From a virus (Duplodnaviria; Heunggongvirae; Uroviricota; Caudoviricetes), in IMG/VR virus record IMGVR_UViG_3300037510_000134: a DNA stretch of 64,000 nt. The stretch is one strand, 5' to 3'. The position numbers were made by a program, and so were the translations under genes. Below, piece after piece: positions 13,234-38,114 of this stretch (position 1 is the stretch's first letter; each line of letters starts with the position of its first letter). The notes beneath the pieces were generated by a model. It was given only the letters and a program-made list of their open reading frames with translations. It was not told the DNA's origin and ran no database searches.

Positions 13234-13311
13234 TTGGGGTGACCGGAGGGAATCGAACCCTCAGCCGCTGGATTCACAGTCCAGCCATCTGCCAATTGAA
13301 AGTACGGCCAC
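13234..13311 (-). tRNA. tRNA-His (anticodon GTG), CCA encoded
   Basis: T-arm GAGGG-TTCGATT-CCCTC; acceptor GTGGCCG/CGGTCAC; anticodon stem CTGGA/TCCAG with loop CTGTGAA; D-arm poorly resolved. Confidence 0.6.
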
Positions 13312-13313
13312 AG

Positions 13314-13384
13314 CTCTCCCACCGGGATTCGAACCGAGACTAACAGATTCAAAGTCTGTTGTGCTACCATTACACCATGGGAGA
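13314..13384 (-). tRNA. tRNA-Gln (anticodon TTG)
   Basis: Acceptor TCTCCCA/TGGGAGA; D-arm GTGT-AATGGTA-GCAC; anticodon stem ACAGA/TCTGT with loop CTTTGAA; T-loop TTCGAAT. Confidence 0.7.
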
Positions 13385-13733
13385 CCGGTAACACCACAAT
13401 ACATGGGTTACCTACCTTTGTCAAGGTCTATATTTTTTACCGCAATAGCATTCATGCCATCCAGAATGGCCTTTATCCTTTGAGCATTTATGCCAGTGCT
13501 TATGTGTAGCACTACAATAGCCTGTAATCACTCCACTAGGTATTTCACATGTTTTCATAATTAACACCTACCACTTTGCTTTACAGATACAGTTATGCTT
13601 GCCCGGATGATCCTTTTTCATAAAACATGTATGCCAGCCTTGATGAGTAACAACACATTGTCCGTTATTCAAATGTAATTTTGAATTACAATACTCAGTC
13701 TTGCTCATTTAATACTCCCATACAATTTTCATT

Positions 13734-14198
13734 TCACTCCAAGTCATATACCGTTACAGATAGATTTGGAAGTGTTCTATTGATGATTGGTTCGATCTCA
13801 TCCCAAGATCCCCCGGCAAGACCCGTACCAATTCTTGGCATATGCACACTAGCATTTAGATAAGATGCTCCTGAGTTTAACTGATTTAAACATGCTTCTA
13901 ATGCATAGTATGATAATGGTTGTGGATTGTCAGCACTAACAATACCATCTTGTGCAACCATATTAGCTACATAAATGTCTTGTTCTACTTGAACGTATTG
14001 ATTGCGACCAAGATAGTATTTACCTACATGACCACGCGATGCCCACCACCTAAAATTAGTTTCAGGATCTTCCCACCGGGCATTAATAGCCCCAGTAAAT
14101 CCAGCGCCCCAAGCACCAATATTATTACATACATGGGCAACGATCTTCATGCCATCACCTTGTGGATATGTAGCGTCACCAATTACATAATTAATCAA
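13734..14198 (-). CDS. macro domain protein (ADP-ribose binding/hydrolase fold)
   Basis: KIVAHVCNNIGAWGAGFTGAI and RIGTGLAGGSWDEIEPII resemble the two conserved Gly-rich macro-domain motifs. Confidence 0.5.
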   Translation of the reverse strand: MINYVIGDATYPQGDGMKIVAHVCNNIGAWGAGFTGAINARWEDPETNFRWWASRGHVGKYYLGRNQYVQVEQDIYVANMVAQDGIVSADNPQPLSYYALEACLNQLNSGASYLNASVHMPRIGTGLAGGSWDEIEPIINRTLPNLSVTVYDLE

Positions 14199-14216
14199 TT
14201 CTTAAATCTCTTTTCT

Positions 14217-14447
14217 TTATTGCCATTCATTGCTTAATCGCTCCAAGAACGCTGGAACTTTGTTGTCATCATAAAAAGGATCAAGGTCTGTAGCACGAAT
14301 TGAATCAGCTAGATCTGGATCTAGTTCATATAGAACATTAAAACAAGTTTGGCCAAATCGCAAGTGTCCTGAATTAACAAATGAGTGCGAAACATTCATC
14401 AAGTAGTGACTAAAGGTTTCAGCCATGTACATTACGCCTCCGAGCAA
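14217..14447 (-). CDS. hypothetical protein (76 aa)
   Basis: ORF track. Confidence 0.3.
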   Translation of the reverse strand: MLGGVMYMAETFSHYLMNVSHSFVNSGHLRFGQTCFNVLYELDPDLADSIRATDLDPFYDDNKVPAFLERLSNEWQ

Positions 14448-14622
14448 TCTTCTTACTAAGTCCTATTCTAGCTTTTCGTTCCGAATCAGAAGTATCTTCT
14501 CCGGTTTCACACACTGACATATCAATACCGTCGTAGTAAGTACGCATTGTACATTCTACTCCATTAGTTACCGCTCTAAAGTTAATTCCTACAGAAGGCC
14601 ATACAGGATTAGTCATTTTCAT
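14419..14622 (-). CDS. hypothetical protein (67 aa)
   Basis: ORF track. Confidence 0.3.
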   Translation of the reverse strand: MKMTNPVWPSVGINFRAVTNGVECTMRTYYDGIDMSVCETGEDTSDSERKARIGLSKKIARRRNVHG

Positions 14623-14745
14623 CCTCTAGTTCTGGATAGAGTTCTTCATCCGTGTAATCTTTACGCCACTCACGCTTCTCCAATTGCTTTACCTTCTTTT
14701 TTCTAGGAAAAACAAAACGCTTAATGGCCTTTTTACCAATCAGCT

Positions 14746-14973
14746 TCATTTCTTTTTATACCTGTCAGGTCGCTCTTTGTTATAGGGTGATTTCTGTCCT
14801 TCAAAACCTTTAGAACGTTTTGGGCTTTTTCTACTTCCTTTACAGTCTGAAACAGATAAGATATCGTTTTTCGGTTTGTGACCGGGAACTCTATCATATA
14901 AATTGCTGTCTACCCACAAATCACATACAGAACATTGAACTGCTTTCTTATCATTCCACTTACTAGATCCCAT
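14746..14973 (-). CDS. small basic protein with CxxC motif (75 aa)
   Basis: CSVCDLWVD; Lys/Arg-rich. Confidence 0.3.
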   Translation of the reverse strand: MGSSKWNDKKAVQCSVCDLWVDSNLYDRVPGHKPKNDILSVSDCKGSRKSPKRSKGFEGQKSPYNKERPDRYKKK

Positions 14974-15006
14974 ATCTCTCCCAAATCAATCTTTTATATA
15001 TTCGTG

Positions 15007-15077
15007 AGACGAATATGGGAATCGAACCCATTTGCAATCTTTTGCAGAGATCTGGCTATCCAACTGCCTCATTCGCC
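15007..15077 (-). tRNA. tRNA-Cys (anticodon GCA)
   Basis: Acceptor GGCGAAT/ATTCGTC; anticodon stem GATCT/AGATT with loop CTGCAAA; T-arm ATGGG-TTCGATT-CCCAT. Confidence 0.7.
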
Positions 15078-15081
15078 AAAG

Positions 15082-15165
15082 TGTGCCGGGAGGGATTTGA
15101 ACCCCCAACGTATCTTCGTAACGCATTTACAGTGCGCCTGCTTCAGCCAATTTGCATACCGACAC
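15082..15165 (-). tRNA. tRNA-Tyr (anticodon GTA), type II with long variable arm
   Basis: 84 nt; acceptor GTGTCGG/CCGGCAC; anticodon stem GCGCA/TGCGT with loop CTGTAAA; about 14-nt variable arm; T-arm GGGGG-TTCAAAT-CCCTC. Confidence 0.7.
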
Positions 15166-15284: not shown

Positions 15285-15491
15285 CTAATACCATTTTTTG
15301 TTTGTACAGTAAGCCCACTTAGAAGTTTTCTGCATAACGCCCTTTACTTCTTTATGTTCATAAATTTTATGTGGACTAATTGTGCCGTCAGGATAGTGAT
15401 CTGTTGAAATTCCGCATACATCACATGGTTTCTTTTGTGTAGTTCTCATGTGGGGATTTTTACCTCCCCGGCTAAATTTCTTGTCACCCAT
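15285..15491 (-). CDS. zinc-ribbon mini-protein (68 aa)
   Basis: CDVCG...CTNKKWY Cys pairs; basic. Confidence 0.35.
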   Translation of the reverse strand: MGDKKFSRGGKNPHMRTTQKKPCDVCGISTDHYPDGTISPHKIYEHKEVKGVMQKTSKWAYCTNKKWY

Positions 15492-15494
15492 ACT

Positions 15495-15596
15495 TCACCC
15501 ATTCGGATGTTGATCACGTATATGGTCTTCTAGTTTTTTAATTGTCTTATAAGGTTGTTTACATATTGGACACTTTAGAACTTTTTCCACTCCCAT
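15495..15596 (-). CDS. C2H2 zinc-finger mini-protein (33 aa, MGVEKVLKCPICKQPYKTIKKLEDHIRDQHPNG)
   Basis: Hand translation; exact C-x2-C-x12-H-x4-H spacing of a classical C2H2 finger; below the ORF-track size cutoff. Confidence 0.4.
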   Translation of the reverse strand: MGVEKVLKCPICKQPYKTIKKLEDHIRDQHPNG

Positions 15597-15611
15597 ATCT
15601 ACCTCCTAGCG

Positions 15612-15707: not shown

Positions 15708-16232
15708 ATGCAAGTCTGTTATAATTCACATATGAATAGAAATTGTAACTATTGTACATCACCTTACCATGCTGAGACAAGATATGTCAATAGAGGGCAA
15801 GGATTATATTGCTCTAGATCTTGCTCTAGCAAGGGCAATGCATTACTACGTAAACCAAAACCTAATGTAGTCTGCGCTTACTGTGGAATTGACTTTTATA
15901 AAAATAAAAGTAAGCAAAATACTAGCAAGAGCGGCCTTTACTTCTGCACGCGTAAACATAAAGATTTAGCACAAAAACTTGGAGGTATACCTGAAATAAT
16001 GCCTCCACATTATGGCACTGGTATTGCTGAAGATTATAGAACTAAAGCTTTTCTAGCATACCCGCCTGAATGTAGGCAGTGTGGATGGAAAGAATATCCA
16101 CAAGTCCTTGAAGTAAATCACATAGATTGTGATAGAACTAATAATGATCTATCTAATCTAGAGATATTGTGTCCAACTTGTCATCGTGTATTTCATTTTA
16201 CTACTAAAACCGGACCTTGGGGTCGGTTGTAG
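15708..16232 (+). CDS. HNH homing endonuclease (plus strand, inside tRNA array)
   Basis: Four CxxC pairs plus VNHIDCDRTNNDLSNLEILCPTCH HNH motif; only convincing plus-strand gene in the window. Confidence 0.7.
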   Translation: MQVCYNSHMNRNCNYCTSPYHAETRYVNRGQGLYCSRSCSSKGNALLRKPKPNVVCAYCGIDFYKNKSKQNTSKSGLYFCTRKHKDLAQKLGGIPEIMPPHYGTGIAEDYRTKAFLAYPPECRQCGWKEYPQVLEVNHIDCDRTNNDLSNLEILCPTCHRVFHFTTKTGPWGRL

Positions 16233-16302: not shown

Positions 16303-16996
16303 ATAACCCTTACGGGTTAATTTTTACTTGACTAGGTAATTGACCTGAACCAGCACATTTTCTTAAAACCGGATTTGAAGGATGTCCATGCGCAGGTACA
16401 GAGCTTCTACCCATATCAGCATCTATCCATTGTTTACAGACGCTACATTTCATTGACTTACTGCTCATTATTTCTTCTTACATGTCTGATTTACATGCTT
16501 CTTATTAAAGGGTGAAATTGGAGTATACCATGTTCCACATCTTTTGCATTCTACAGCAGGAGGATGTGTGCCATCCTTATTATTCATTTACTAAATCCCC
16601 AGTTAGATACTTTTACCCGTTACACTTTTTACCTCGTGTTTTACCCAATGCCTTCGTGTCCTTTTTAAAATGCTCGACTCCGGGCGTTCTCCATGTACCA
16701 CATAAAGGGCACTGTGCAGCGGGTCCTTTTATTTCCTTAGACATCTTTCTCCTAATATATTATTTAGTACACTGCCCTGTACGATGTGGTTCGCTATCTG
16801 GAGGCAGGGGCACATAAAATTCATGACAGTGTCTACATTCAATAGCCCTTGGTCTAGGGGTGTTCTTAGCCAACTTACGCATTTTCTTTACTTTATTCTT
16901 ACACATAATCATCATCCTTAATAGAAGGGCTGGTGCCGTACGTTTAAGCGATTGCACACCATTTAAGTCCCCGCGTGGAAACACCTATCAACTCAG

Positions 16997-17345: not shown

Positions 17346-17373
17346 GGCTTAGCCTACCATAGGTAGGCTAGCC
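17346..17373. terminator. strong hairpin (about 13-bp stem GGCTTAGCCTACC/GGTAGGCTAGCC)
   Basis: Near-perfect inverted repeat in the intergenic gap between minus-strand ORFs; no obvious U-tract. Confidence 0.35.
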
Positions 17374-17503
17374 AGTCAAGACTTAGATGCCTCGGCGTGC
17401 GATGAACACGATGCCTGCAATAATAGCGATCACGATCAATACTGTCAATAGTAGTTCCATTTGGATACACCTCCTACATTTAGGATACCCCAAATGACAC
17501 AAA

Positions 17504-18388: not shown

Positions 18389-19387
18389 CTAGAAGGTACA
18401 AGGCCCTTCACAAGTCGTACAATGTTGTGGCCATTGAAGATTTACAATTTCTGACTTAGTTACATCTATAATAGTTAGTTGATTTTCATCAACCGGCGTT
18501 TCTTCCTCATCACACATACACCCGCCACAGCCACATGTACAATAACCACATTCATCACATTCGTCTGAGTCATAGTAATCTTCTTCATCGTCAAAAGTGT
18601 CATCTACATCTAATGCATCAGTAATCTCATTCTCAATGATTTCTAATACTGTATATCTACAGGCTCGTAGCTTTTGCCCCCCGGCGTCTGATGGAACGCT
18701 TACTACATCCCGAGGATCTACTAGTACCTTTAGAATAGCACCATTACGACCCCACCATTGAGCGTATTCCCATGTACCAATATGTAGACCATAAGAACAA
18801 GTTTGATCTGGATCGAATGTTACATCTGCACGGGGCATTTCGATAACAAAACCAACGTTATTAGGCACCTTGCCATTAACTAGTTCACCATTAACGATTG
18901 CCTTACCGCTATGTACAGAGTGAAATCCACCATTACCATCAGACTCTACGCCCTTATAACCGATGATCTTACCATCTTCAGTAATTGTAAAGTCGTGACT
19001 GTTCAACCAACTGTAAAGCTGTGTAACTGATTCTTGATTCGGATTTGTTGCTAGCCGTTCATAGAACTTTACCAGTGGAACAAAATCTCTATCTTCTTCT
19101 AAGAATCTGACAATTTGTCTTGTTAGGACAGTATCTACTTCGTCACCATCAAAGTATACTCTACTCCCGGCCACGCGGACTCGCTCCGATAGTGATTCAA
19201 ACTTTCTAGCAACTACCCTAGACATATCAAATAGATCTACTACTGATTCATCATCATCCTCTAGACCTGTGACAATCGCCTGCCAATTTGGATGGTCACT
19301 TGTTGCAGTATACATTACATTGTTGTGAAATAGGGTAACGTTTCCGGTACCATCTTCACGGTCAAATCTTGAGTATTGTAAACTCAT
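18389..19387 (-). CDS. rIIB: rIIB-like protein
   Basis: Central/C-terminal region (FTITEDGKIIGYKGV ... DPDQTCSYGLHIGT ... LKVLVDPRDVVSVPSD ... KLRACRYTVLE) matches T4 rIIB motifs (IEITEDGYFYAWKVV ... DDTQTCSRGLHVCS ... VKVKVHPRDVVSIPID ... KMRTCQYEVVE); extra Cys/acid-rich C-terminal tail. Confidence 0.75.
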   Translation of the reverse strand: MSLQYSRFDREDGTGNVTLFHNNVMYTATSDHPNWQAIVTGLEDDDESVVDLFDMSRVVARKFESLSERVRVAGSRVYFDGDEVDTVLTRQIVRFLEEDRDFVPLVKFYERLATNPNQESVTQLYSWLNSHDFTITEDGKIIGYKGVESDGNGGFHSVHSGKAIVNGELVNGKVPNNVGFVIEMPRADVTFDPDQTCSYGLHIGTWEYAQWWGRNGAILKVLVDPRDVVSVPSDAGGQKLRACRYTVLEIIENEITDALDVDDTFDDEEDYYDSDECDECGYCTCGCGGCMCDEEETPVDENQLTIIDVTKSEIVNLQWPQHCTTCEGPCTF

Positions 19388-21797: not shown

Positions 21798-22007
21798 TGA
21801 ATTACCTTACATGCATTTGCCTGAATGATTTTTAAGTCTTACACATAAACTACCAACTTTACTGCCCGGTACTGGCTTATTACATAATTCGCGGGGCTTA
21901 GGTGGTTCCTTAGACATCAGTCTAACAGCTCCATTATCTCTTCAATAGCTCCATCCCTGATTTTCTTTTGAATTTCAGGGTCGAACAATTCATGTAATTC
22001 GTACTTG

Positions 22008-22244
22008 TTATCTTCCATAATGTTTACTACACTTCTCGCAGCTTCTAATATGCTTATTTCCCATACTATTTACAGCATTACTTAATCTGTCCTTTGTATT
22101 GAATTCTTTATTAGTTGGAGCTTCTGTATGCTGCTCGATTTCTGTTCCACAGAACATTTGCGTTTTAACAGTTATAAACAATATATTGCTATCTCGCAAT
22201 ACTGGATGTTTCAATTTACTTAAATTTGGCCATTGTTTAGCCAC
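22008..22244 (-). CDS. hypothetical protein (78 aa)
   Basis: ORF track. Confidence 0.3.
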   Translation of the reverse strand: MAKQWPNLSKLKHPVLRDSNILFITVKTQMFCGTEIEQHTEAPTNKEFNTKDRLSNAVNSMGNKHIRSCEKCSKHYGR

Positions 22245-22355: not shown

Positions 22356-22547
22356 CTAATCTAAGTTTTTGGTCCCGTAATTCTTACAATTTCTATCATG
22401 TCCAAGATATGTCTCTCCAATAGCATGAACATCAGAGTTACAGCTTCTACACTTGCCAATTCTTTTTCTCATTTTATACCCTTTTTCCGCTTCCCGGACA
22501 TGGTTGTCCTTTGTCAAAATCAAAGTGATCGTAAAGATAAAAATCAT
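22356..22547 (-). CDS. small zinc-ribbon protein
   Basis: CRSCNSD...CKNYG Cys pairs; a second 45-aa zinc-ribbon mini-ORF (MGKTHKCKYCGKP...) lies immediately upstream at about 22485-22620. Confidence 0.3.
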   Translation of the reverse strand: MIFIFTITLILTKDNHVREAEKGYKMRKRIGKCRSCNSDVHAIGETYLGHDRNCKNYGTKNLD

Positions 22548-22637
22548 CTTCCTTTTGATCTACAGGTATTGGCTTTCCACAGTATTTGCATTTATGAGTT
22601 TTACCCATCGCACCTCCTCTTGTCTTCTGTCATATAG

Positions 22638-22709: not shown

Positions 22710-22811
22710 TGGGCTGATGCCTCATATCCGGAGACATCAGCAAAAGACTATAAATTAGTCACTTGGTTTACTATATACTAACACGTTTAAGAAAAGAAGT
22801 CATTCTAAGGT

Positions 22812-22876
22812 TGAAATGTTTTGCCGCTAAACTACGAGGACATGTATTGGAGTCCTCGGGCAGATTCGAACTGCCG
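22812..22876 (-). ncRNA. tRNA-like half element E1: T-arm, acceptor 3' strand, CCA-containing linker, acceptor 5' strand, D-arm
   Basis: Minus-sense reads GGCAG-TTCGAAT-CTGCC CGAGGAC T CCAATACAT GTCCTCG TA GTTT-AGCGGCAA-AAC; canonical T-arm but the acceptor strands are joined by a 10-nt loop and no canonical anticodon arm follows. Confidence 0.4.
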
Positions 22877-22954
22877 TATTTCAATAATTGCTTCTAATCA
22901 GTTGATTTAGCACATAGCGTATGTATTACTAAGTCTAGAGCGATAATCTAAATC

Positions 22955-23026
22955 TAATATGCGCTGCCTCTGCCAATTGGGCTAGGTGGTCATGTAGTGA
23001 CCACCGCAAGATTCGAACTTGCACTT
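22955..23026 (-). ncRNA. tRNA-like half element E0 (same architecture as E1)
   Basis: Minus-sense reads GCAAG-TTCGAAT-CTTGC GGTGGTC A CTACAT GACCACC TA GCCC-AATTGGCA-GAGGC; D-arm nearly identical to that of the tRNA at 24841..24915. Confidence 0.4.
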
Positions 23027-23187
23027 TAACGACTTTTTAGACTGAATATCAATCTAAACTTTGCTCTACAGTACAGTCGTAGAGCCACCGGCGCTCAAAC
23101 CGGAAACTTATGTGGCGGATCACAGTTCTTAACACTCTTTTTGCGCCTCCCAGACGTGATCTCTTACCTAGTGTTAGACCATTACAC

Positions 23188-23919
23188 TTAACTAAACAGG
23201 TATCTGAAGATTGGTCCTGCTGCATCTTCGTCAGTTACTTCATATTGATTTGCTTCTTCGCGGGCAAACTTAACAGCTTGAATTAGCTTGTCAACGCGCT
23301 CTAGCAATTCATTTCTACGTGTAACTGGAATAGCGCCAGAAGTATCAACCTTTGTCCACGTACCTACAATTACATCCTCATGGAAGATTTCAACTTGCGC
23401 CGGGTGCTTATCAGTTGCTTCTGCCTTTACCCAGTTGCGAGGAACCTTCTTAGTACGAACCGTCTGTACTGGAGTTGTCTTGTAGATATCATTGTTCCCA
23501 TCATACACCCACTCAGACGCTTGGTCAAGGGTTGGAAGCTTGGTAATGAAAGTACGTAGATCTACTAGTTGCTTCTCAAGAAATAGTAGATAGGGAACAG
23601 GGACATCAGTAAGTAATGTTTGACCATCTACCTTCAGGTCCGCGCTTGCATGCGCATTTGAATATTCCTTAATAGCTGTAACGTTAAATAGCTTTGTAAG
23701 GGCATCTTCTGCTTCGTTTAGCAGATCCGGCACAGTTACCTGCACCTTTGTACTTTCTGATGGTAACTGGTCCCCTTCTTCATCCTTTGGCTTGTAGGTA
23801 CGATTAATACCACTAAAAAGAGCTGATTTTTGCGCCTTGTGATAAAGTGCTGTAATTGCATCGCGGGCCTTTGACTTTACGCCCTGTTCTACAGCTACAA
23901 TTTGATTAAGCTTTGTCAT
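23188..23919 (-). CDS. hypothetical protein (243 aa)
   Basis: ORF track; no motif recognised. Confidence 0.4.
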   Translation of the reverse strand: MTKLNQIVAVEQGVKSKARDAITALYHKAQKSALFSGINRTYKPKDEEGDQLPSESTKVQVTVPDLLNEAEDALTKLFNVTAIKEYSNAHASADLKVDGQTLLTDVPVPYLLFLEKQLVDLRTFITKLPTLDQASEWVYDGNNDIYKTTPVQTVRTKKVPRNWVKAEATDKHPAQVEIFHEDVIVGTWTKVDTSGAIPVTRRNELLERVDKLIQAVKFAREEANQYEVTDEDAAGPIFRYLFS

Positions 23920-24112: not shown

Positions 24113-24346
24113 TTAAAGTACGAACAATTCTGCCATTGTTCCGTAGAAATTGTATACTTTTGCATTATCCTTTGAGTCTACATAAAAGATATCAACCTCT
24201 GTTGATTCATACCAACAGGTTTCACAGTATCCGCCGGATACTACCTTTTCATTCACACCTGTTACTAGTTTAACATCACGATTGCATTCTCTTCGTAGAT
24301 ACTCTGCAAGAAATTCTTTAAATCTTTTTTCTACTTCTGCATCCAT
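24113..24346 (-). CDS. hypothetical protein (77 aa)
   Basis: ORF track. Confidence 0.3.
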   Translation of the reverse strand: MDAEVEKRFKEFLAEYLRRECNRDVKLVTGVNEKVVSGGYCETCWYESTEVDIFYVDSKDNAKVYNFYGTMAELFVL

Positions 24347-24521
24347 TAATTTAACTTCCTAGTTCCATAGTTAGTGCAATTTTGGTCATGCCCAATATAT
24401 TTCTCCCTGGTAACTACATAAATTTTATTACCACAAGTGTTACATTTACCTATACAGCTCCTGTATTTACTTACCATAATAGCACCTTAATATTGTTTGT
24501 ACCGCTGAGAGGAATTGAACC

Positions 24522-24839
24522 TTAGTCCTTCAGATATTTAGGGCATTCATTAACGGCTCCATGACTAACATGACTTACTGCAAAGTCATAAATATCTTCT
24601 ACGCCGATAATGTTCATTGGTAATGAAGGGTCTATGTGGTCAATCCTGACCTTTCGTCTAAGGCTATAATCCACTACAACACTTCTTGTCCCTAAACTAC
24701 TTCCAGTTCCAATTCTAACATCGTGAAACGTATATTGTGGTTCTGCGAGTTCACTTCTACCATTGATAATGTCCAAAAGCAATTTTTCTCTGTGCTTAAA
24801 CTCTTCTATTTGAGCTTTTAATTCTTCAATATTTTCCAT
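24522..24839 (-). CDS. hypothetical protein (about 105 aa, start reassigned to ATG at 24839)
   Basis: The ORF-track start at 24851 is a GTG that overlaps the tRNA at 24841..24915; the first ATG is at 24837-24839. Confidence 0.35.
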   Translation of the reverse strand: MENIEELKAQIEEFKHREKLLLDIINGRSELAEPQYTFHDVRIGTGSSLGTRSVVVDYSLRRKVRIDHIDPSLPMNIIGVEDIYDFAVSHVSHGAVNECPKYLKD

Positions 24840-24840
24840 G

Positions 24841-24915
24841 TACTTCCGCACAGATTCGAACTGTGAACCTCTTCCTTCTAAGGGAAGCGCCTCTTGCCAA
24901 TTGGGCTACGGAAGC
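24841..24915 (-). tRNA. tRNA with anticodon TAG (Leu codon CUA), class-I length
   Basis: Acceptor GCTTCCG/CGGAAGT, discriminator A; anticodon stem CTTCC/GGAAG with loop CTTAGAA; T-arm CACAG-TTCGAAT-CTGTG; 5-nt variable loop; 5' end overlaps the stop of the HNH ORF by about 10 nt. Confidence 0.55.
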
Positions 24916-25403
24916 TTATTTTTCCAACTTCTATTTGTTGGCTCTTGTGAATGACAGTTAGGGCACATAAATCTGAGATTATCTATTAGATTGTTTAGCC
25001 ATTCTCCATCTATATGGTCTACTTCTAGTGTTATTTCTTTGCCATTCCATTCACTGCCAAGTCCGCACCGTTCACATTTGTATTCCCTATCTGACTCTAT
25101 CAGAGCCCTGCGAAGTCGGAATGCTTGAATACGCCTTGATCCTTCCGGCAAAAATACTAGTATATCTTCCGCATTAAGCTTATTTCTAGATGGTTTATCT
25201 TTCTGCCAACTTTGTCCCGTGAAATGAGAGAAGTCTATTTCATATTTAATCAATCGACTCTTGACATGACTTTGTGTTCCCCCGGCCTGTTTCAGTCCCA
25301 AGTATCTGAGCACACCTGATATTGAATAACTATTATCTACTGCTTCTTGCAGTAGTTCTTTTGTATATTTTATACTGGTAGACATGCAGTAAGTATACCA
25401 CAT
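24906..25403 (-). CDS. HNH homing endonuclease
   Basis: CERCG ... VDHIDGEWLNNLIDNLRFMCPNCH HNH motif. Confidence 0.65.
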   Translation of the reverse strand: MWYTYCMSTSIKYTKELLQEAVDNSYSISGVLRYLGLKQAGGTQSHVKSRLIKYEIDFSHFTGQSWQKDKPSRNKLNAEDILVFLPEGSRRIQAFRLRRALIESDREYKCERCGLGSEWNGKEITLEVDHIDGEWLNNLIDNLRFMCPNCHSQEPTNRSWKNKLP

Positions 25404-25627: not shown

Positions 25628-26055
25628 ATTACTTTATGCCTCTAGGTGTTCCGCTGTTTGGACAAGTATATTTACCACTCTTAGTTTCCCAAGAATGCTT
25701 TTTCCAAACTAACTCACCATTTTTAGATACTATGTCTACTCTCGTTAAACATCCCGGACATACTTTACTTTTTACGATTTCTGACAATGTCTAATCTCTC
25801 CGTTCCATAATTCTCACACAATTTACTATGACCAAGATATTTACCTGTAGATGTACCTCTGTATATAATGTTAGCACACCCTAAACATCTACCTAGTCTA
25901 TCTGCTGCCATTATTTATCCTTCCCCTTGGATTTCTTCTGTTTCTTTACTTCACAGCTACGTTCATGAGCATCTCTAACAGCCTCACTATCAAACTTTTT
26001 GCCACAGCCAGGATTTAAGCAATAATAAACACCCATTATCTCTCCCTTTTGATAG

Positions 26056-26127
26056 AGCCTCCACCAGGACTCGAACCCGGCACTCACGATTACAAGTCGT
26101 GTGCTTTACCTGATAAGCTATGAAGGC
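26056..26127 (-). tRNA. tRNA-Thr (anticodon TGT)
   Basis: Acceptor GCCTTCA/TGGAGGC; D-arm GCTT-ATCAGGTA-AAGC; anticodon stem CACGA/TCGTG with loop CTTGTAA; T-arm CCGGG-TTCGAGT-CCTGG. Confidence 0.75.
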
Positions 26128-26270
26128 AAATAGGAAGAGAATAAGTTCTTATAGCTGTCGTGGTACAACCCTCTATAAGCTTTTATTCTTCCGGGAGAAC
26201 CTTGACCACGCCCTTATTTCTCCCGTTGCGTAACTTCCATCCGCGATGTGCTACCAGTCTAGCACACAGA

Positions 26271-26489
26271 TCAATCTAGGTCAACCCGTCGCCAGGCTGG
26301 TAAGTCGCCTTCTTCTACCCAGACCTCAAATTCTTGATAATTTTTTGATAACCAATTATTTGCTTCTGTGATGGTTTTGATCGCCGCTTGAACAGTTTCA
26401 GCATTATCATAAATCCACGGGTCGGACTTTGTATAGCCTTGACCATTAACTGTATATACTACTCTGTATTGCTTCATCTTTCCGCCCAA
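26271..26489 (-). CDS. hypothetical protein (72 aa)
   Basis: ORF track. Confidence 0.3.
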   Translation of the reverse strand: MGGKMKQYRVVYTVNGQGYTKSDPWIYDNAETVQAAIKTITEANNWLSKNYQEFEVWVEEGDLPAWRRVDLD

Positions 26490-29468: not shown

Positions 29469-30265
29469 TATCCCTCCAATGGAATTAGCTTATGTGACTT
29501 TGATTTATGTACTGCAACGTAATCTACATCCGGTGTACGCATTACGTCATAATTTTCAATTAGGAATCTACTCGACCAACCTTTAGTCAAGGAAGTAATA
29601 GTCCTCTTCAGAGCCCATGCATATGCTTTGCGTGGGCTCACTGTGTAATTAGAAGGAATTACCTGCCGTTCCAGTGCTGTTGCGTAAACTTCCTCGCGAT
29701 ACAACCTGATCTGCTGGTCCCATGATAGCGCACGGATTTTAGCCATGTCAACATCAATCTCGCTGCCATCTTTTAGGACATCAATATACATAGCATGGTC
29801 GCCATATGCTACTGATTCATGTAATGAGTCGTGGTCATATTTGCGTACTACAGCATCACCAAAGAATTCATCTTTAGTAAGAGCAAGCTTTAGTTGTTTC
29901 TTACCATGGACATCTTCCCATACTTTATATAGACGTTTGTATTGGTCATCTATGATCTTAGCACCGGCCTGCTTTAGCATGACAATGTCAGACATGTGCT
30001 TATCCCAAGAGCCATTACGAAGCTCCCACCCTACATGGCTACATTTAACTGTGTAAAGTTCATCAAGATCTGGCCACACTGCGGATGACGGTCTAGCCTC
30101 AAAAAATTCTACTAGACCGTCATGCCAAAAAGGCTCTACACGAAGACCGTCATATGTACTGGGAAAATCTGTATCATTTGTCCATATATCAAAATCTTTA
30201 GGACTTCTCTTAGATCCAATTAGTTGATTCATAACCCATGAGCCTACAGGCATAGTGTAAATCAT
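29468..30265 (-). CDS. hypothetical protein, possible nucleotidyltransferase fold (265 aa)
   Basis: N-terminal IGSKRSPKDFDIWT weakly resembles the G[GS]...DxD NTase signature; otherwise unassigned. Confidence 0.3.
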   Translation of the reverse strand: MIYTMPVGSWVMNQLIGSKRSPKDFDIWTNDTDFPSTYDGLRVEPFWHDGLVEFFEARPSSAVWPDLDELYTVKCSHVGWELRNGSWDKHMSDIVMLKQAGAKIIDDQYKRLYKVWEDVHGKKQLKLALTKDEFFGDAVVRKYDHDSLHESVAYGDHAMYIDVLKDGSEIDVDMAKIRALSWDQQIRLYREEVYATALERQVIPSNYTVSPRKAYAWALKRTITSLTKGWSSRFLIENYDVMRTPDVDYVAVHKSKSHKLIPLEG

Positions 30266-30468
30266 TAATACAGCCCTTCAAATAGTAGATCCCAACAGGT
30301 ATCATGTGTGCCAGTTACAATGAGCTCTCGTTCGGCAGGTGTTAGTTCTGGAAATACATCTTGAACATGTTCGCCATAATGCCAACGAATAAGCTTCTCT
30401 TCATCTAGTTCTAGAGATTCACTAGTACCACATACTTGACATAGTGGCGTTGTATAAATCACTAGCAT
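30265..30468 (-). CDS. hypothetical CxxC protein (67 aa)
   Basis: CQVCG near the N-terminus. Confidence 0.3.
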   Translation of the reverse strand: MLVIYTTPLCQVCGTSESLELDEEKLIRWHYGEHVQDVFPELTPAERELIVTGTHDTCWDLLFEGLY

Positions 30469-30709: not shown

Positions 30710-30949
30710 CAGTTCTCCTCTAATTATTTAATAGCGGATGCGGAGAGTAAAGGAACTCAACCCTTCAGCCATACTTCCAAATATTAATCTGGGTTACTAA
30801 AGCCAGATTTACGACTAAACCCAGATTTAGAACATCTTACGCCAGCTTTATTGTCATGAACGACGAAAAGGCCATTTACTACTTCAATCATTTGACGACA
30901 AAAAGGACACTTCTTTTTCATTACACCTCCAAATAAATTTTTCTACTTG

Positions 30950-32820: not shown

Positions 32821-33124
32821 ATTGTTATCTTGTTGAGTTTAATATGAGTCTCAACTTACCCCGACCGTACACTTGTGGTCTTAATTGGATGGATAACGCA
32901 CCCTATTTCTTGCTGTTGTGACTACAGTCTAGCGCATGGCACGTGCCCTGTCAAGACTTTTTCGGTGGTTCTGGAGGTGGCATCGGTGTGCGCGATCCAG
33001 GTATGATCGTAACCAAATTACCACATTTACAGTAAAAAGCTTTTACTCTTACTGTATCTTTACCACTTTCTACAATCTCGCTTTTTGCTATCGTACCCTT
33101 GCAGACATGCCTACCCATCTTTCT

Positions 33125-33301
33125 TTAACCTAGACAACGATCAATGTGTAGTAGGCGATTCTTTTCATTGAGATCCTTTACGGACATGCCGCAAATAGGG
33201 CAAAACTTTGTTGGATCTCCACCCTTACCACCACGCGCGGTTTCACGTGCTTTCGCCCGCGCCTTTTCCATTGCCTTCATCTTTTCGCGGTTACTTACCA
33301 T
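33125..33301 (-). CDS. zinc-ribbon mini-protein (58 aa, ...FCPICGMSVKDLNEKNRLLHIDRCLG)
   Basis: Hand translation; CPIC...H..C motif; basic N-terminus. Confidence 0.35.
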   Translation of the reverse strand: MVSNREKMKAMEKARAKARETARGGKGGDPTKFCPICGMSVKDLNEKNRLLHIDRCLG

Positions 33302-33743: not shown

Positions 33744-34224
33744 TAGCACATTTTATATTGTGCTACCAATGTACCATTTCCCTTATGGTAAGCTACTGCA
33801 CTTCGTTCAGCTAAAGGAGCATCTACCTGTGATAATGAAAAATCACAAGCGCTACAACTAACCTCATACTTTCCCGTACTACCAATTTTCTTAAGCTTTA
33901 CGATGTGCTTTTTAGACATTAACCCTCTTTAGGCGTTGTATGATCTCTTCCAGTATCACAAATACAGGTTTTTCTCACATATCTATTAAGTGCTTTATCC
34001 CAATATTTGTGGGTATGTCTAGGACTTTTATTTGGCAAATTGGGATCTGGCTCTGGATGCTTCATTGACACCTCTTACATAGTCTTCCATTAGGAGTCTG
34101 AACCTCACATCTTGCAGTATTACCTCTTCCGGCAAATTTGCAAATTGTACAACCACAATTACAGCTATTATTTTTAACTTTTCCTCTACAGGAACAATCT
34201 TTATATAATATTTCTTTACTCATG

Positions 34225-34296: not shown

Positions 34297-34476
34297 TTAA
34301 TGATCTGGACAAATATCTGGATCTCTTTGCCACTTTCTTTTTTGCGCCTGACTAAAAAGACGCTCTATTGCATCACTTACTTTAGTCATTCCGCGTCTAG
34401 ATATTTGTACCTCTATACTTGATGAACATTTTGAACACTTTAATGTAACATGGTCGAAATCAACCTTCAATGGCAT
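34297..34476 (-). CDS. zinc-ribbon mini-protein (about 59 aa from internal Met MPLKVDFDHVTLKCSKCSSS...)
   Basis: The 110-aa ORF-track model overlaps tRNA-Gln(CTG); the internal ATG at 34476 gives a non-overlapping CxxC...C..H protein. Confidence 0.35.
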   Translation of the reverse strand: MPLKVDFDHVTLKCSKCSSSIEVQISRRGMTKVSDAIERLFSQAQKRKWQRDPDICPDH

Positions 34477-35026: not shown

Positions 35027-35176
35027 ATAATTATTTAACACTGTTTACATTTATTTTTATTTGAATCACTTGGGAACATTACTGTGCACCAGTGCCAGTT
35101 TTTACATCCTTGGCATCTACAACCACAAGGTTTATCATTTTTATTTCCAAAACAGGAGCATCTTTTCTTTGTCACG

Positions 35177-35250
35177 AGCGGGTGACCAGATTCGAACTGG
35201 CACTTACAGTTTGGAAGACTGTTGTGCTAACCTTTAAACACTACACCAGC
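35177..35250 (-). tRNA. tRNA-Gly (anticodon TCC)
   Basis: D-arm GTGT-TTAAAGGTTA-GCAC; anticodon stem ACAGT/ACTGT with loop CTTCCAA; T-arm GCCAG-TTCGAAT-CTGGT; one U-C mismatch at acceptor pair 3-70. Confidence 0.6.
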
Positions 35251-35464
35251 AATGTGATATGGAAGAGGAGACAACCATATCACAAGTTATTACTTAACCT
35301 TACCACTATTTTGACACAATCCGCCATCCGCCGGTCTTAGATGCATGGACCATTTTTGTCGTCCATCTGCTGATTCAAAATGCATGGTCCTTGCCCCGCA
35401 TTTTGGACAGGTGGCAGGAGTTTCATCACCATATGCCATATTTTCTCCAGTTCATACTACTGAG

Positions 35465-35536
35465 CATGGACGTAGGGAGTCGAACCCCATTTCGACCGGT
35501 TTTGGAGACCAGTTGCCTATCCGTTGGCTCATCCAT
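35465..35536 (-). tRNA. tRNA-Trp (anticodon CCA)
   Basis: Acceptor ATGGATG/CGTCCAT; anticodon stem CTGGT/ACCGG with loop CTCCAAA; T-arm TGGGG-TTCGACT-CCCTA. Confidence 0.6.
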
Positions 35537-35577
35537 TCAACAGGTAAGTACTAGCTTACACCATCCTAAGCTGCATG

Positions 35578-36162: not shown

Positions 36163-36226
36163 TGCCTTCTCCGGTCGGTAGCTGGTGGAGGCACCAGTCT
36201 ATCGCATCAGACTACCACTGTCAAGA

Positions 36227-36910
36227 CTAAGACCACTGTGCGCCGGACCACACCTTGACTGGCCCAGATTGAACCCATCCATCACCACTCCATATTAAAA
36301 CTCCCGAACCACTACTCGCCACAGGTGTATCCATTAAAGTTGCTATTTGTGATTCTGTAAGCGCTTCATCGTATATACGTAAATCATCTACTACTGTGGT
36401 GTTTGTTGTCCATTCCATTATATCTAATGAGTCTGCATCTGTTCTTAGTGGACCGGCGAAAACTGTCTGTGATCTGAATACCCCATCTACATATAGCTTT
36501 ACAGCTGAACCATCATAAGTAGCGGCATAGTGATGCCACAATCCATCACCAGGTATAGGGTATGTTGGTCTAGTAGCCAAGTCAGAATTCGATCTAGCCT
36601 GTACGGCAACGTTTCCACCGATATGCATTAATCCCCATGCACCTGAACCTATTGAACTAACATTCCATCTTACAATCCATGTAGCACCGGTGCCCTTTAT
36701 CCAGCACATAACAGTCCTGTTTGAAGTTTGGCCTAAAACAGGTAATTGTGGCATGGAACCGCCATTTTTAGTTAGACCAAATAACGTATGCCCATTAATA
36801 TCTCTAAGGGCGCTAGATCCAGCAATGCTAAAGTTATTATTGTTTCCACTATAATCAATAACTGTATTACCTGACGGCTCATCAAAAGCATATGCAGCAA
36901 GTAAGCTCAT
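36227..36910 (-). CDS. concanavalin-A-like/LamG lectin-domain protein
   Basis: GLWHHYAATYDGSAVKLYVDGV is a classic LamG/pentraxin-type jelly-roll motif; start reassigned to the ATG overlapping the upstream stop (ATGA coupling). Confidence 0.5.
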   Translation of the reverse strand: MSLLAAYAFDEPSGNTVIDYSGNNNNFSIAGSSALRDINGHTLFGLTKNGGSMPQLPVLGQTSNRTVMCWIKGTGATWIVRWNVSSIGSGAWGLMHIGGNVAVQARSNSDLATRPTYPIPGDGLWHHYAATYDGSAVKLYVDGVFRSQTVFAGPLRTDADSLDIMEWTTNTTVVDDLRIYDEALTESQIATLMDTPVASSGSGVLIWSGDGWVQSGPVKVWSGAQWS

Positions 36911-37287
36911 ATAATCTCGCCACCAAAAGGTATCCAAAGATCTCCTGCTGACAAATTAATATCGCTAGGGGCATCTGTAGATGGGTCGCCTCCAATAAAA
37001 AAGGTAGCGCGTGTGCTATTACCCCTTGAAGGCCAACCAGCATTAAATAATAGAAATCTAGGAGTATCTGATAAATTAACTTCAGACCCCTCTAAATCTG
37101 TTACTCTATTTTCTAATGCAGATACAACTAAGTTATCAGCCTTGTCATCTAGAAGATCATCAGTATCTGTTTTAGTATAGTAGTTCTCTAAACCATCTCC
37201 ACTTCCACCTGCGGCTATCTCCGCTTGAAGGTCAATGCCTGTATCTCTATAAAAACGACTATACTTATCTTCTAATTCATCGGCCAC
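36907..37287 (-). CDS. Gly/Asp-rich fibre-like protein (126 aa)
   Basis: Acidic N-terminus, Gly-rich C-terminus; stop overlaps the start of the LamG gene (ATGA). Confidence 0.4.
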   Translation of the reverse strand: MADELEDKYSRFYRDTGIDLQAEIAAGGSGDGLENYYTKTDTDDLLDDKADNLVVSALENRVTDLEGSEVNLSDTPRFLLFNAGWPSRGNSTRATFFIGGDPSTDAPSDINLSAGDLWIPFGGEII

Positions 37288-37502
37288 GCTTTAATTATAC
37301 CTAAATTAGGTTAGTACCGCAACACTATGGCTTAGGCGTATCATACACTACACTACGTAATATATGGCCACAGTTTTTACATATGCTTGCAACTGCGACT
37401 ATCAGTTGCGTATCAGGATCACGCTCTACTACTTTTCTAACCTTTTTGAAACTGCATTCCGGACACTTTTCCATATAAGTAGAATACCCAGATATTTAAA
37501 CA

Positions 37503-37694
37503 TTATACCTGTTCATTAAAATCTATACCGTTCCAATTATGGGATTTTTTACCGTGAGACTGCATTCCTCTTTTTACCTTAGCTATTGTCCTATCAAGGA
37601 TAGAGACACCACAGTCTGGACATTCTGCACCGAACCAAGTGTCTATTGGTCTCCATCTAATAGTAATACTTGGAGTATATGCTTTCTTTTCCAT
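37503..37694 (-). CDS. zinc-ribbon mini-protein (63 aa)
   Basis: ECPDCG motif; a further MEKCPECSFKK... mini-ORF lies at about 37330-37480. Confidence 0.3.
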   Translation of the reverse strand: MEKKAYTPSITIRWRPIDTWFGAECPDCGVSILDRTIAKVKRGMQSHGKKSHNWNGIDFNEQV

Positions 37695-37841
37695 TTAATC
37701 TATTTCGCCGCATTTCTATTCATCATATTTGCATGCTTTTCGGCCTTCTTGCGACCTTCTTCCCCTGGGCCGAATCCTGTTCTGGTACCGTCTGCATTCT
37801 TTACAGTCCACTGCGTACCATAATATTGTACTTCATATCTA

Positions 37842-38024
37842 TCAGACATCATATCCCCCTTGACTATTTAAAACTCTATTTAATCTTGCTGCTTTCTTTT
37901 CTGCATTGGATTTATCTTTATCCGTCTTTCCACAATGTTCTACAGTTCTACCATCTGGTGCGACTACTCCCCATCCGTAGAAATCACCCGTCCATTTAAC
38001 TTCATATTCTTTTCTAGCCATCAT
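37842..38024 (-). CDS. hypothetical protein (60 aa)
   Basis: ORF track. Confidence 0.3.
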   Translation of the reverse strand: MMARKEYEVKWTGDFYGWGVVAPDGRTVEHCGKTDKDKSNAEKKAARLNRVLNSQGGYDV

Positions 38025-38039
38025 ACCTCCTTAAATAAG

Positions 38040-38114
38040 TCCGGGCGGGGGGATTTGAACCCAACCTATTCCCATGTTATAAGCATGGTTCCTATACCAA
38101 TTGGAGTCACCCGG
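38040..38114 (-). tRNA. tRNA with anticodon TAT (Ile codon AUA), weak T-stem
   Basis: Acceptor CCGGGTG/CGCCCGG; anticodon stem CCATG/CATGG perfect with loop CTTATAA; T-loop TTCAAAT but only 3 T-stem pairs. Confidence 0.5.

Follow-up and report, generated by a model that had tools for sequence, protein, structure and literature searches.

A phage tRNA gene array interleaved with cysteine-rich micro-genes, probably an inherited codon supply

Phage T5 (Demerecviridae) is the textbook analogue of a tRNA gene array interrupted by endonuclease genes: its early region carries about 24 co-oriented tRNA genes together with hypothetical open reading frames (ORFs) of 28-100 amino acids (aa) and tRNA-like stable RNAs, and the free-standing HNH genes hegA, C, D, E and F lie among the tRNA genes. 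In dozens of cultured actinophages, too, annotation shows large arrays that include HNH genes and small ORFs. In one of the closest layouts, that of Samisti12 (Stanwilliamsviridae), 43 tRNA genes and a transfer-messenger RNA (tmRNA) gene are interleaved with small hypothetical ORFs and with genes for a band-7 protein, a nucleotidyltransferase, an RNA ligase and a polynucleotide kinase. Here we analyse a tRNA gene array at positions 13,234 to 38,114 of a 64,000-nucleotide stretch of DNA (hereafter the window) from the Caudoviricetes record IMGVR_UViG_3300037510_000134.

As a tRNA array, the interval belongs to an already known kind of feature and adds little to it. In our assessment it is probably the array of an uncultivated lytic phage of about 130 kb that is distantly related to Samisti12, and serves mainly as an inherited codon supply.

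The tRNA genes and the role of the array

The tRNA genes were called with ARAGORN at its default threshold and then with the threshold relaxed to 90% (-ps90) and 85% (-ps85), and their quality was judged with the Rfam tRNA model RF00005 (gathering threshold 29 bits). At the default, 22 tRNA genes were found across the window, on the minus strand throughout, 21 of them within 13,234-38,114; the other, tRNA-Pro(tgg) at 10,001-10,072, lies outside that interval and is the last of the array. The sole addition at -ps90 was an Ile(tat) at 38,039-38,114, giving 22 genes in the interval and 23 in the window, and -ps85 yielded nothing but implausible extras. An earlier note on this DNA, made by a model from the letters alone, had counted about 24 minus-strand tRNA genes: the strand was right and the number too high by two, and all 22 of the anticodons it listed agree with ARAGORN (Ile(tat) at -ps90 only). 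The genes, all called by ARAGORN, are:

38039..38114 (-), tRNA-Ile(tat)-like, sub-threshold; called at -ps90 only, no Rfam match
35466..35539 (-), tRNA-Trp(cca), divergent; Rfam 31 bits as tRNA-Sec; acceptor-stem mismatches
35176..35250 (-), tRNA-Gly(tcc); Rfam 54.6 bits
34955..35026 (-), tRNA-Asn(gtt); Rfam 57.2 bits
34490..34562 (-), tRNA-Gln(ctg); Rfam 61.5 bits
34224..34296 (-), tRNA-Met(cat), divergent D arm; Rfam only 18.6 bits
33671..33743 (-), tRNA-Val(tac); Rfam 73.5 bits
33355..33429 (-), tRNA-Ile(gat); Rfam 75.4 bits
32745..32820 (-), tRNA-Glu(ttc); Rfam 58.3 bits
32499..32570 (-), tRNA-Glu(ctc); Rfam 54.2 bits
30949..31025 (-), tRNA-Asp(gtc), divergent; Rfam 26.8 bits as tRNA-Sec
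26055..26127 (-), tRNA-Thr(tgt); Rfam 61.1 bits
25553..25627 (-), tRNA-Arg(acg); Rfam 56.1 bits
24840..24915 (-), tRNA-Leu(tag); Rfam 58.5 bits
22637..22709 (-), tRNA-Lys(ttt); Rfam 59.1 bits
22273..22347 (-), tRNA-Lys(ctt); Rfam 62.5 bits
16229..16302 (-), tRNA-Leu(caa); Rfam 50.8 bits
15611..15685 (-), tRNA-Ala(tgc), divergent D arm, 6-bp anticodon stem; no Rfam match
15081..15165 (-), tRNA-Tyr(gta); Rfam 50.1 bits
15006..15077 (-), tRNA-Cys(gca); Rfam 40 bits
13313..13384 (-), tRNA-Gln(ttg); Rfam 59.8 bits
13235..13311 (-), tRNA-His(gtg), the sole tRNA here that encodes CCA; Rfam 50.5 bits
10001..10072 (-), tRNA-Pro(tgg); no Rfam match

All 23 tRNAs have an anticodon loop of 7 nt with U33 and A37, and 17 of them pass the Rfam threshold, at 40-75 bits. 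The six that do not are Trp, Asp, Met(cat), Ala, Pro and Ile(tat): tRNA-Trp and tRNA-Asp reach only 31 and 26.8 bits, and as tRNA-Sec, and the Rfam scan returned no match for tRNA-Ala, tRNA-Pro or Ile(tat). In the divergent tRNAs the D arm is short or irregular or the T stem is damaged; tRNA-Ala carries G3:U70. The T stem of Ile(tat) has 3 pairs and 2 mismatches, and the gene is homologous to a well-formed tRNA-Ile(tat) that occupies the same place downstream of the terminase gene in the related contigs L003, L004 and L095, so that the copy at 38,039-38,114 looks like a decaying one. Just downstream of tRNA-Pro, at about 9960-10000 on the minus strand, is a G+C-rich hairpin (CCCCGAGA...TCTCGGGG) that may be a terminator or a processing signal.

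The window genes are overwhelmingly on the minus strand, at a G+C content (GC) of 40%, and the 23 tRNA genes lie on one strand within 28 kb of a genome that also encodes TerL, DnaE, RecA and rIIA/B; they share the orientation of the early/middle genes downstream of the large terminase gene. The interval had no megablast match among 50,697 phage records, an identity search with the SpoU protein returned no record, and no relatives were found when sought with rIIA alone. TerL is 48% identical to that of Streptomyces cluster BE phages, and the phage probably represents a new genus or higher taxon. Samisti12 shares the gene order DnaE, RecA, Cas4-like nuclease, RuvC, TerL, (HNH) and then the tRNA array, which is followed by dCMP deaminase, rIIA/rIIB, WhiB and thioredoxin genes; the window and its downstream flank hold these genes, and Rhodococcus phage NiceHouse has the common layout too. 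The WhiB (L083 17635-17991) and thioredoxin (L083 19626-19901) genes are a few kb outside the window, beyond its low end. From the WhiB gene, and from a DUF7873 protein that is 61-64% identical to Streptomyces chromosomal proteins, we infer an actinobacterial host. The related contig L097 repeats the tRNA order Trp-Gly-Asn-Gln-Met-Val-Ile-Glu-Glu-(band-7)-Asp and adds Phe, Ser(tga) and Ser(gct) tRNAs, but most tRNAs of this order have been lost in L095, the closest relative (band-7 protein 93% identical), and the array thus appears to be inherited and subject to quick turnover.

The choice of isoacceptors fits a role in codon supply because it matches the codon usage of the phage, whose G+C content at third codon positions is 31%. 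All six of the four-codon boxes with a non-inosine tRNA (Ala, Pro, Thr, Val, Gly, Leu-CUN) carry U34, and the top codon is read in five; under strict wobble 66% of codons are readable. Both U34 and G34 isoacceptors are retained in Samisti12, whose GC is about 50%. That the tRNA set follows the phage's own A/U-ending codons comes close, as judged from the phage side only, to what the earlier note had named as an observation that would speak against its own proposal of a counter-defence role.

That proposal drew on an RNA repair island, which proved real: genes for a polynucleotide kinase-phosphatase (PNKP), an RNA ligase, RlaP and SpoU lie directly downstream of the array on the same strand, at 2243-8449 (-) of the window:

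7898-8449 (-), RlaP nucleotidyltransferase
6247-7539 (-), RNA ligase, PF09414 family, with an N-terminal OB domain
5807-6250 (-), DUF8296
4745-5677 (-), polynucleotide kinase-phosphatase; matches T4 Pnk (1ltq) over its full length at E=1.5e-31; also a Pnkp1 homologue
2243-2950 (-), SpoU 2'-O-methyltransferase

The ligase has no solved relative by sequence, and the ligase/kinase pair is also present in Samisti12. Homologues of rIIA (652 aa, GHKL ATPase) and rIIB (332 aa) lie in the middle of the array (18389-21342, minus strand), as they do in Samisti12 and NiceHouse, and in L095 a Thg1-like gene (tRNA-His guanylyltransferase family, 18641-19324) stands beside rIIA. Also among the tRNA genes, a 154-aa protein encoded at 13734-14198 (-) matches phrog_335 'phosphatase' at E=4e-26, with no Pfam match; its N terminus looks macro-domain-like by eye.

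A counter-defence role of phage tRNAs is a published hypothesis (PMC10264068, PMC11555353, PMC11464382). Were it the primary role here, the phage tRNAs would replace host tRNAs destroyed upon infection by anticodon nucleases or by other defences directed at tRNAs, and PNKP and the RNA ligase would mend cut ones. The repair island, adjacent at 2-8 kb and conserved with the array in Samisti12, agrees with this, as do rIIA/rIIB and the macro-domain phosphatase inside the array, which are known or plausible anti-defence genes, and the Thg1-like tRNA enzyme that L095 adds. Experimental support exists for T5 tRNAs (PMC11464382, PMC11555353) and the case has been argued for mycobacteriophages, among which a reported avoidance of VapC-targeted Ser tRNAs recalls the lack of any Ser tRNA in the window (PMC10264068). 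However, the earlier note's claim that the set is enriched for anticodon-nuclease targets fails, because 18 of the 20 amino acids are covered and the chance of including all six named target amino acids is P=0.48. The anticodon loops are canonical: every one has U33 and A37, and that of Lys-UUU reads CUUUUAA. Two Ser tRNAs, Ser(tga) and Ser(gct), are present in L097, and the preference for U34 isoacceptors is in line with phage GC content. The array and the ligase/kinase pair, having the same layout in Samisti12, are inherited, which argues against tailoring to the nucleases of one host. Counter-defence as the primary role seems to us unlikely, and is plausible as a benefit secondary to, and not mutually exclusive with, codon supply.

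Several points weigh against codon supply as well. Codon compensation was judged from the phage side only, and the window has no tRNA for the top Arg codon AGA, the major Leu codon UUA, or any Ser or Phe codon; AUA is served only by the decayed tRNA. L095 does without most of these tRNAs, so individual ones are dispensable, and five or six are structurally divergent and may function poorly. Co-transcription and processing are predictions from the sequence. Finally, in mycobacteriophages no codon-usage signal was found and nuclease evasion was argued (PMC10264068).

The tRNA genes had also been described as interleaved with HNH endonucleases. Such genes are present, but only two were found in the region, not many:

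24906..25403 (-), HNH homing endonuclease between tRNA-Arg and tRNA-Leu(tag); Pfam HNH E=5.8e-6, phrog_10822 E=1e-51
15708..16232 (+), HNH homing endonuclease between tRNA-Leu(caa) and tRNA-Ala; phrog_1271 E=1.2e-17 plus 15 further HNH PHROGs

The former overlaps tRNA-Leu(tag) by 10 nt, and the latter is the only sizeable antisense gene of the region. In the related contig L092 (70-77% nucleotide identity) the gap between tRNA-Arg and tRNA-Leu(tag) is 3 nt and that between tRNA-Leu(caa) and tRNA-Ala is 5 nt, with no HNH gene in either; L092 has another, different HNH gene between rIIB and DUF1353. Because both flanking tRNA pairs are adjacent in L092, the two window genes are insertions at tRNA-tRNA junctions, a pattern that is the signature of free-standing homing endonucleases.

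These insertions would also suit an array that is largely selfish or neutral cargo, its tRNA genes and small ORFs building up in a recombination-prone accessory region and being spread by HNH homing endonucleases while the phage gains little. The T5 heg genes show the same association with tRNA genes, as does T4 SegB; tRNA content turns over rapidly among close relatives (L095, L097 and the window), and several tRNAs are decayed or divergent. Nevertheless, the order Trp-Gly-Asn-Gln-Met-Val-Ile-Glu-Glu-Asp is kept at only about 70% nucleotide identity, 17 tRNAs are well formed and the choice of isoacceptors fits codon usage, and we strongly doubt that the array is mere cargo.

Cysteine-rich micro-genes between the tRNA genes

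Tiling the minus strand greedily by length, without regard to composition, gave 45 micro-ORFs of 33-84 aa at 13.4-38.5 kb. Cysteine makes up 5.5% and histidine 3.5% of their residues, compared with 1.1% and 2.0% in 48 large window proteins, and 32 of the 45 have at least two Cys and a sum of Cys and His of at least four. CxxC is found in 27/45, against 6/115 antisense ORFs (Fisher P=3e-13) and 7/55 off-frame ORFs, and a frame-specific codon model gives a positive coding score to 42/45, against 51% of antisense ORFs (P=9e-10). About 34 Cys/His-rich micro-genes fill the spaces among the tRNAs, with gaps of 0-40 nt, and a reading of the gene map places a Cys/His-rich ORF no more than 200 nt from about 18 of the 23 tRNAs. 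The earlier note had nearly every tRNA flanked by a zinc-ribbon ORF; the flanking is roughly right and the class mostly not, the motif types being a mix of C2H2, C2HC, CxxC...H...C and 9-Cys among which classical two-knuckle zinc ribbons are a minority.

Many of these ORFs belong to paralogue families that keep their Cys positions invariant. Family A has four copies with nine invariant Cys (CxC-x9-13-CxCxCxxC-x5-11-C-x9-12-CxxC), family B the pattern GKCxxC...GHDxNCxNYGT, family C six copies with CPxC...H...C.xSG, and family D CxxCxxW...H...C; family E is Cys5-His5, and there are two single C2H2 fingers of 33 aa. The micro-genes are as follows:

38180..38305 (-), DnaJ-type CxxCxGxG, 41 aa, past 38,114; 71% identical in L095; DnaJ_CXXCXGXG match assigned by motif
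37503..37694 (-), C2H2-like, 63 aa; 68% identical in L095
37325..37474 (-), classical zinc ribbon (2 x CxxC), 49 aa; 61% identical in L095; Zn_ribbon_8/rubredoxin-like matches assigned by motif
35290..35439 (-), family C (CPxC...H...C.xSG), 49 aa; 57% identical in L097
35035..35175 (-), family A, 9-Cys, 46 aa; GTG directly after C74 of tRNA-Gly; 61% identical in L095
34750..34920 (-), family A, 9-Cys, 56 aa; 9 invariant Cys; copies in L095 and L097
34578..34721 (-), family A, 9-Cys, 47 aa; by family A alignment and relatives
34297..34476 (-), CxxC...CxxH, 59 aa; Shine-Dalgarno sequence (SD) directly after tRNA-Gln(ctg), stop abuts tRNA-Met
34062..34223 (-), family A, 9-Cys, 53 aa; ATG directly after C74 of tRNA-Met
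33919..34071 (-), Cys2-His4 micro-ORF, 50 aa; 63% identical in L095
33743..33919 (-), CxxC micro-ORF, 58 aa; stop codon shares one base with tRNA-Val
33125..33301 (-), CxxC...HxxxC, 58 aa; 53% identical in L095
32951..33118 (-), 3-Cys micro-ORF, 55 aa; by gene map and relatives
30784..30921 (-), family C, 45 aa; by gene map
30265..30468 (-), CxxC ORF, 67 aa; phrog_20898, E=4.6e-9; 78-82% identical in relatives
25911..26036 (-), C..C..H..C micro-ORF, 41 aa; begins 18 nt after tRNA-Thr
25629..25787 (-), family C, 52 aa; stop 1 nt from tRNA-Arg
24346..24477 (-), family B, 43 aa; paralogue of 22356-22472, E=2e-13; copies in L092 and L095
24113..24346 (-), ORF with CxxC, 77 aa; phrog_5993, E=3e-19
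22474..22608 (-), family C-like (CxxC...CPGSG), 44 aa; AGGAGG SD downstream of tRNA-Lys(ttt)
22356..22472 (-), family B, 38 aa from an internal ATG, start uncertain; paralogue of 24346..24477
22008..22244 (-), ORF with C-terminal CxxC, 78 aa; by gene map and L092 comparison
21807..21917 (-), 3-Cys micro-ORF, 36 aa; 97% identical in L095, 81% in L092
21543..21797 (-), Cys8-His9 ORF, 84 aa; 70% identical in L092
16760..16984 (-), family D-like, up to 74 aa, start uncertain; by gene map and L092 comparison
16613..16744 (-), family D, 43 aa; paralogue pair; L092 comparison
16468..16587 (-), family D, 39 aa; paralogue pair, E=4e-6; 76% identical in L092
16310..16468 (-), family C, 52 aa; paralogue of 14746-14973, E=1.5e-7; 82% identical in L092
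15495..15596 (-), single C2H2 finger, 33 aa; SD directly after tRNA-Ala; zf-C2H2_4 match assigned by motif
15285..15491 (-), CxxC micro-ORF, 68 aa; 72% identical in L092
15173..15274 (-), single C2H2 finger, 33 aa; stop 7 nt from tRNA-Tyr
14746..14973 (-), family C, 75 aa; paralogue of 16310..16468; copy in L092
13568..13708 (-), family E, Cys5-His5, 46 aa; paralogue pair, E=4e-10
13421..13567 (-), family E, Cys5-His5, 48 aa; paralogue pair with 13568..13708

Searched against Pfam, 33 Cys-rich ORFs gave weak matches only: zf-C2H2_4 (best E=2.1e-5, two ORFs), rubredoxin-like (3.5e-5) and Zn_ribbon_8 (3e-3), the last two coming from two of the 33, and DnaJ_CXXCXGXG (E=1.9e-4, one ORF, which also matched Anti-TRAP). 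Those matches that were listed individually fall below the family cut-offs. PHROGs returned two families of unknown function only (phrog_5993, phrog_20898). Family A had no homologue in a word search of 5.8 billion proteins or in HMMER against 1.84 billion representatives, and its AlphaFold2 model (predicted local distance difference test score, pLDDT, 45) was unusable. Most micro-ORFs are, on the other hand, conserved in the contigs L092, L095 and L097, where tblastn recovered them at 37-97% amino-acid identity with the Cys pattern retained. Family A has five or six copies per genome in the related contigs and is not called as genes there; in L095 five family A genes in tandem (8000-9000) are overlain by a called antisense ORF of 288 aa (7822-8688). 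The absence of family A from protein databases is thus explained by a gene caller that missed this tandem block, and conserved, multi-copy Cys-rich micro-proteins can escape gene callers and protein databases alike.

Most micro-ORFs have no database homologue and family A scores about zero or below in the codon-usage test, as would be expected if they were chance open frames in tRNA spacers. Conservation in relatives effectively refutes this: the Cys enrichment (P=3e-13), the positive coding score of 42/45, the paralogue families with invariant Cys, the retention of Cys patterns in three related contigs and the presence of SD sequences all run counter to it. By composition and conservation the Cys-rich micro-ORFs are real genes, and they are predicted to encode small metal-stabilised accessory proteins.

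Might these putative zinc micro-proteins act on the tRNAs themselves, for example by chaperoning them, by assisting their modification as cofactors or by inhibiting nucleases that cut them? The CxxC ORFs of the window do cluster near tRNAs (21/36 within 400 nt versus 8/36 farther away, P=0.004), and in relatives most ORFs that begin on the base after a tRNA are rich in Cys. The association is absent, however, from 80 more distant related loci (31% versus 24%, P=0.17), the tandem family A block of L095 persists although most of the neighbouring tRNAs are gone, and no homology to an RNA-binding family was found at curated thresholds, so that we regard such a function as very improbable. A link between Cys-rich ORFs and tRNAs as a trait of the wider group of TerL relatives was rejected on the same non-significant difference, and the extreme Cys-richness therefore belongs to the lineage of the window and not to the wider group; searched by tblastn, the 80 distant loci gave only 3 matches to the micro-ORFs.

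tRNA 3' ends and the organisation of transcripts

Among the 22 default-called tRNAs, 20 end in N73-C74 followed by a base other than C, as does the sub-threshold Ile(tat), and CCA is encoded only in tRNA-His (an ARAGORN call is extended to C74 only if that base is really present). C74 without C75 was likewise found in 151/165 tRNAs of the 80 related loci and in 42/42 of Samisti12; in contrast, 22/23 tRNAs of T5 encode the full CCA. Since its tRNAs encode C74 but not C75 and A76, this lineage probably depends on CCA-adding activity. C74 itself may be a processing determinant.

We counted the junctions at which an ATG or GTG opening an ORF of at least 40-45 codons stands exactly on the base after C74. 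The window has three, against 0.2 expected (P=0.001): tRNA-Gly and tRNA-Met each run into a family A gene, and tRNA-Leu(tag) into a longer ORF:

24522..24839 (-), 105-aa ORF, not Cys-rich; ATG directly after C74 of tRNA-Leu(tag)

In the 80 related loci a start codon occupies this base at 10/165 tRNAs, against 1.6 expected, with one case at each of the offsets 1-5. The same holds for 6/42 tRNAs in Samisti12 and for none in T5, and such junctions also occur in L092, L095, L097 and NiceHouse; the independent cases pooled amount to 19/238 tRNAs, against 2.3 expected. The tRNA-Gly/family A junction is common to the window and L095, the proteins being 61% identical, and the L092 homologue of the C2H2 finger at 15495..15596 starts at offset 0 after tRNA-Ala. 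Family A genes have their conserved CxC 5-10 codons from the tRNA, a distance that holds neither an alternative start codon nor space for an SD. Packing is tight throughout, with stop codons 0-9 nt before tRNA 5' ends and SD or start codons directly after tRNA 3' ends; most ORFs have an SD, and the spacer-free junctions are a minority.

Leaderless translation is a widely used pathway in Actinobacteria. We tentatively suggest, as one possibility and as mechanistically the simplest reading, a tRNA-punctuated operon in which endonucleolytic cutting at C74 would create the leaderless, or 1-nt-leader, 5' end of a zinc micro-protein mRNA; if this is true, such mRNAs would be translated by the leaderless pathway. 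In mycobacteria leaderless translation is common and RNase E cuts immediately 5' of cytidines, which fits a cut between N73 and C74 (PMC10641625). The literature searched contained no paper linking leaderless translation to phage tRNAs, and no description of C74-without-C75 tRNAs or of start codons abutting C74. C74-only tRNAs with an ORF on the next base thus would connect tRNA processing with leaderless translation in Actinobacteria in a way that can be tested directly.

A promoter-like motif, TTGAC-N18-TAGACT, occurs at six sites (1.3 expected), all on the minus (coding) strand and all intergenic by the gene map, five of them in or beside the array:

59550..59578 (-), promoter-like site; motif search
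38480..38508 (-), promoter-like TTGACA-N17-TAGACT between ORFs; motif search
36196..36224 (-), promoter-like site upstream of the block of tRNAs (Trp to Ile) and micro-ORFs
32926..32954 (-), promoter-like site upstream of tRNA-Glu(ttc)
26256..26284 (-), promoter-like site upstream of tRNA-Thr
17351..17379 (-), promoter-like site with one mismatch; motif search

The -10 part of the motif fits the TANNNT-type element of actinobacterial promoters. Because promoter-like sites are few and terminators show no excess in the window, several multi-kilobase transcription units that mix tRNAs and micro-ORFs are likely.

The array would then work as follows. A few sigma-70-like promoters (TTGACA-N17-TAGACT) would drive long polycistronic transcripts, from which RNase P and a 3' endonuclease would excise the tRNAs, to be completed by a CCA-adding enzyme since only C74 is encoded. 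The tRNAs would mainly decode the A/U-ending codons of the phage in a probably G+C-rich host, making phage translation less dependent on the host tRNA pool; this independence, together with PNKP and the RNA ligase, would blunt tRNA-cleaving host defences as a secondary benefit. The micro-genes would share the tRNA transcripts, and for some the cut at the tRNA 3' end would double as the 5' end of the mRNA.

DUF7873, its structured RNA, and comparison with known systems

Beside the main finding, and not at its core, the array contains what looks like an undescribed protein-RNA gene pair:

23188..23919 (-), DUF7873 protein gene; Pfam E=3e-106; 5,505 homologues
22773..23103 (-), structured RNA with two tRNA-like (YrlA-like) modules; Rfam YrlA 24.6 bits; five-phage alignment

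The 478-nt stretch between DUF7873 and tRNA-Lys(ttt) holds no convincing ORF. DUF7873 is followed by a like gap in phages that infect Rhodococcus, Gordonia (two genera), Arthrobacter, a cyanobacterium and Rhizobium, and by 1.4 kb without a called gene in the chromosome of Streptomyces prasinus. When the gaps of five actinophages were aligned, two tandem tRNA-like modules emerged, each made up of a T arm, a hairpin of 7 bp and a D arm, along with closing helices; compensatory double changes occur in 30/52 predicted pairs. With an nhmmer profile of this alignment the RNA was recovered immediately after DUF7873: in L092 at E=5e-63, in cyanophage Pam2 at 6e-16 and in the Streptomyces prasinus chromosome at 5e-11. 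The RNA, of about 330 nt, was located at L086 12836-13195, L087 1985-2317, L088 1947-2301, L089 2111-2484, L090 2037-2279, L092 6001-6358 and L093 5880-6053, and in the examined loci it always lies just downstream of the DUF7873 gene. A further nhmmer match was seen at L084 9751-9925, although the Streptomyces phage records yielded no homologue of DUF7873.

With 24.6 bits against a threshold of 69, the RNA falls short of the YrlA family (RF02553), and no Ro60 homologue was found within the window; the published YrlA survey searched only Ro60-bearing genomes (PMC4201824). The predicted model of the DUF7873 protein (pLDDT 81) resembles no solved fold, and in the literature searched no paper mentions DUF7873 or describes its double tRNA-like RNA. 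What we describe is thus a strongly covarying double tRNA-like RNA tied to a widespread protein, both in Streptomyces chromosomes and in phages whose hosts span three bacterial phyla. A YrlA-like element that is sub-threshold (33 bits) and unannotated is present in Samisti12 as well (L002 27690-27804), directly after tRNA-Ile(tat) and about 5.5 kb upstream of a Ro60-like gene.

Set against the described systems, the window shares with T5 the general organisation outlined above but shows no sequence relationship to it. T5 tRNAs encode CCA (22/23), no T5 ORF begins at a tRNA 3' end, the small ORFs of T5 are not Cys-rich (2.2% Cys), and its HNH genes are more numerous than those of the window; with no similarity and different tRNA tails, a T5-like identity was ruled out. 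T4 resembles the window in having a homing endonuclease, SegB, in its tRNA cluster, and a Pnk homologous to that of the window alongside an RNA ligase. T4 Pnkp and Rnl1 repair tRNA-Lys cut by PrrC. The T4 cluster has only 8 tRNAs, however, and the ligase of the window belongs to PF09414 and has an N-terminal OB domain.

Mitochondrial tRNA punctuation is a functional analogy only. There too tRNAs abut coding sequences, as where a stop codon of the window shares a tRNA base (33,743), and the predicted excision of tRNAs would leave mRNAs starting at, or 1 nt before, the start codon; in the window, in contrast, spacer-free junctions are a minority and most ORFs have an SD. The YrlA/Y RNAs bound by Ro60 (RF02553; PMC4201824) share with the DUF7873-linked RNA the permuted tRNA-like module of T arm, stem-loop and D arm. 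The window RNA differs from them in its two tandem modules, its score far below threshold, the lack of a Ro60 gene and its constant neighbour, DUF7873.

The closest likeness is to the Stanwilliamsviridae (cluster BE) and the related phages of Rhodococcus, Gordonia and Arthrobacter, which have a homologous layout with the array downstream of TerL, and in which band-7, rIIA/B, RNA ligase, PNK and WhiB are all present, together with N73-C74 ends without C75 (42/42), ORFs directly after C74 (6/42) and a sub-threshold YrlA-like RNA. In contrast to these phages, to which its TerL is only 48% identical, the window has 40% GC versus about 50%, about half the tRNAs, only U34 isoacceptors in four-codon boxes, and neither a tmRNA called by ARAGORN nor a Ro homologue, while its spacer ORFs are far more enriched in Cys and include, in addition, the 9-Cys family.

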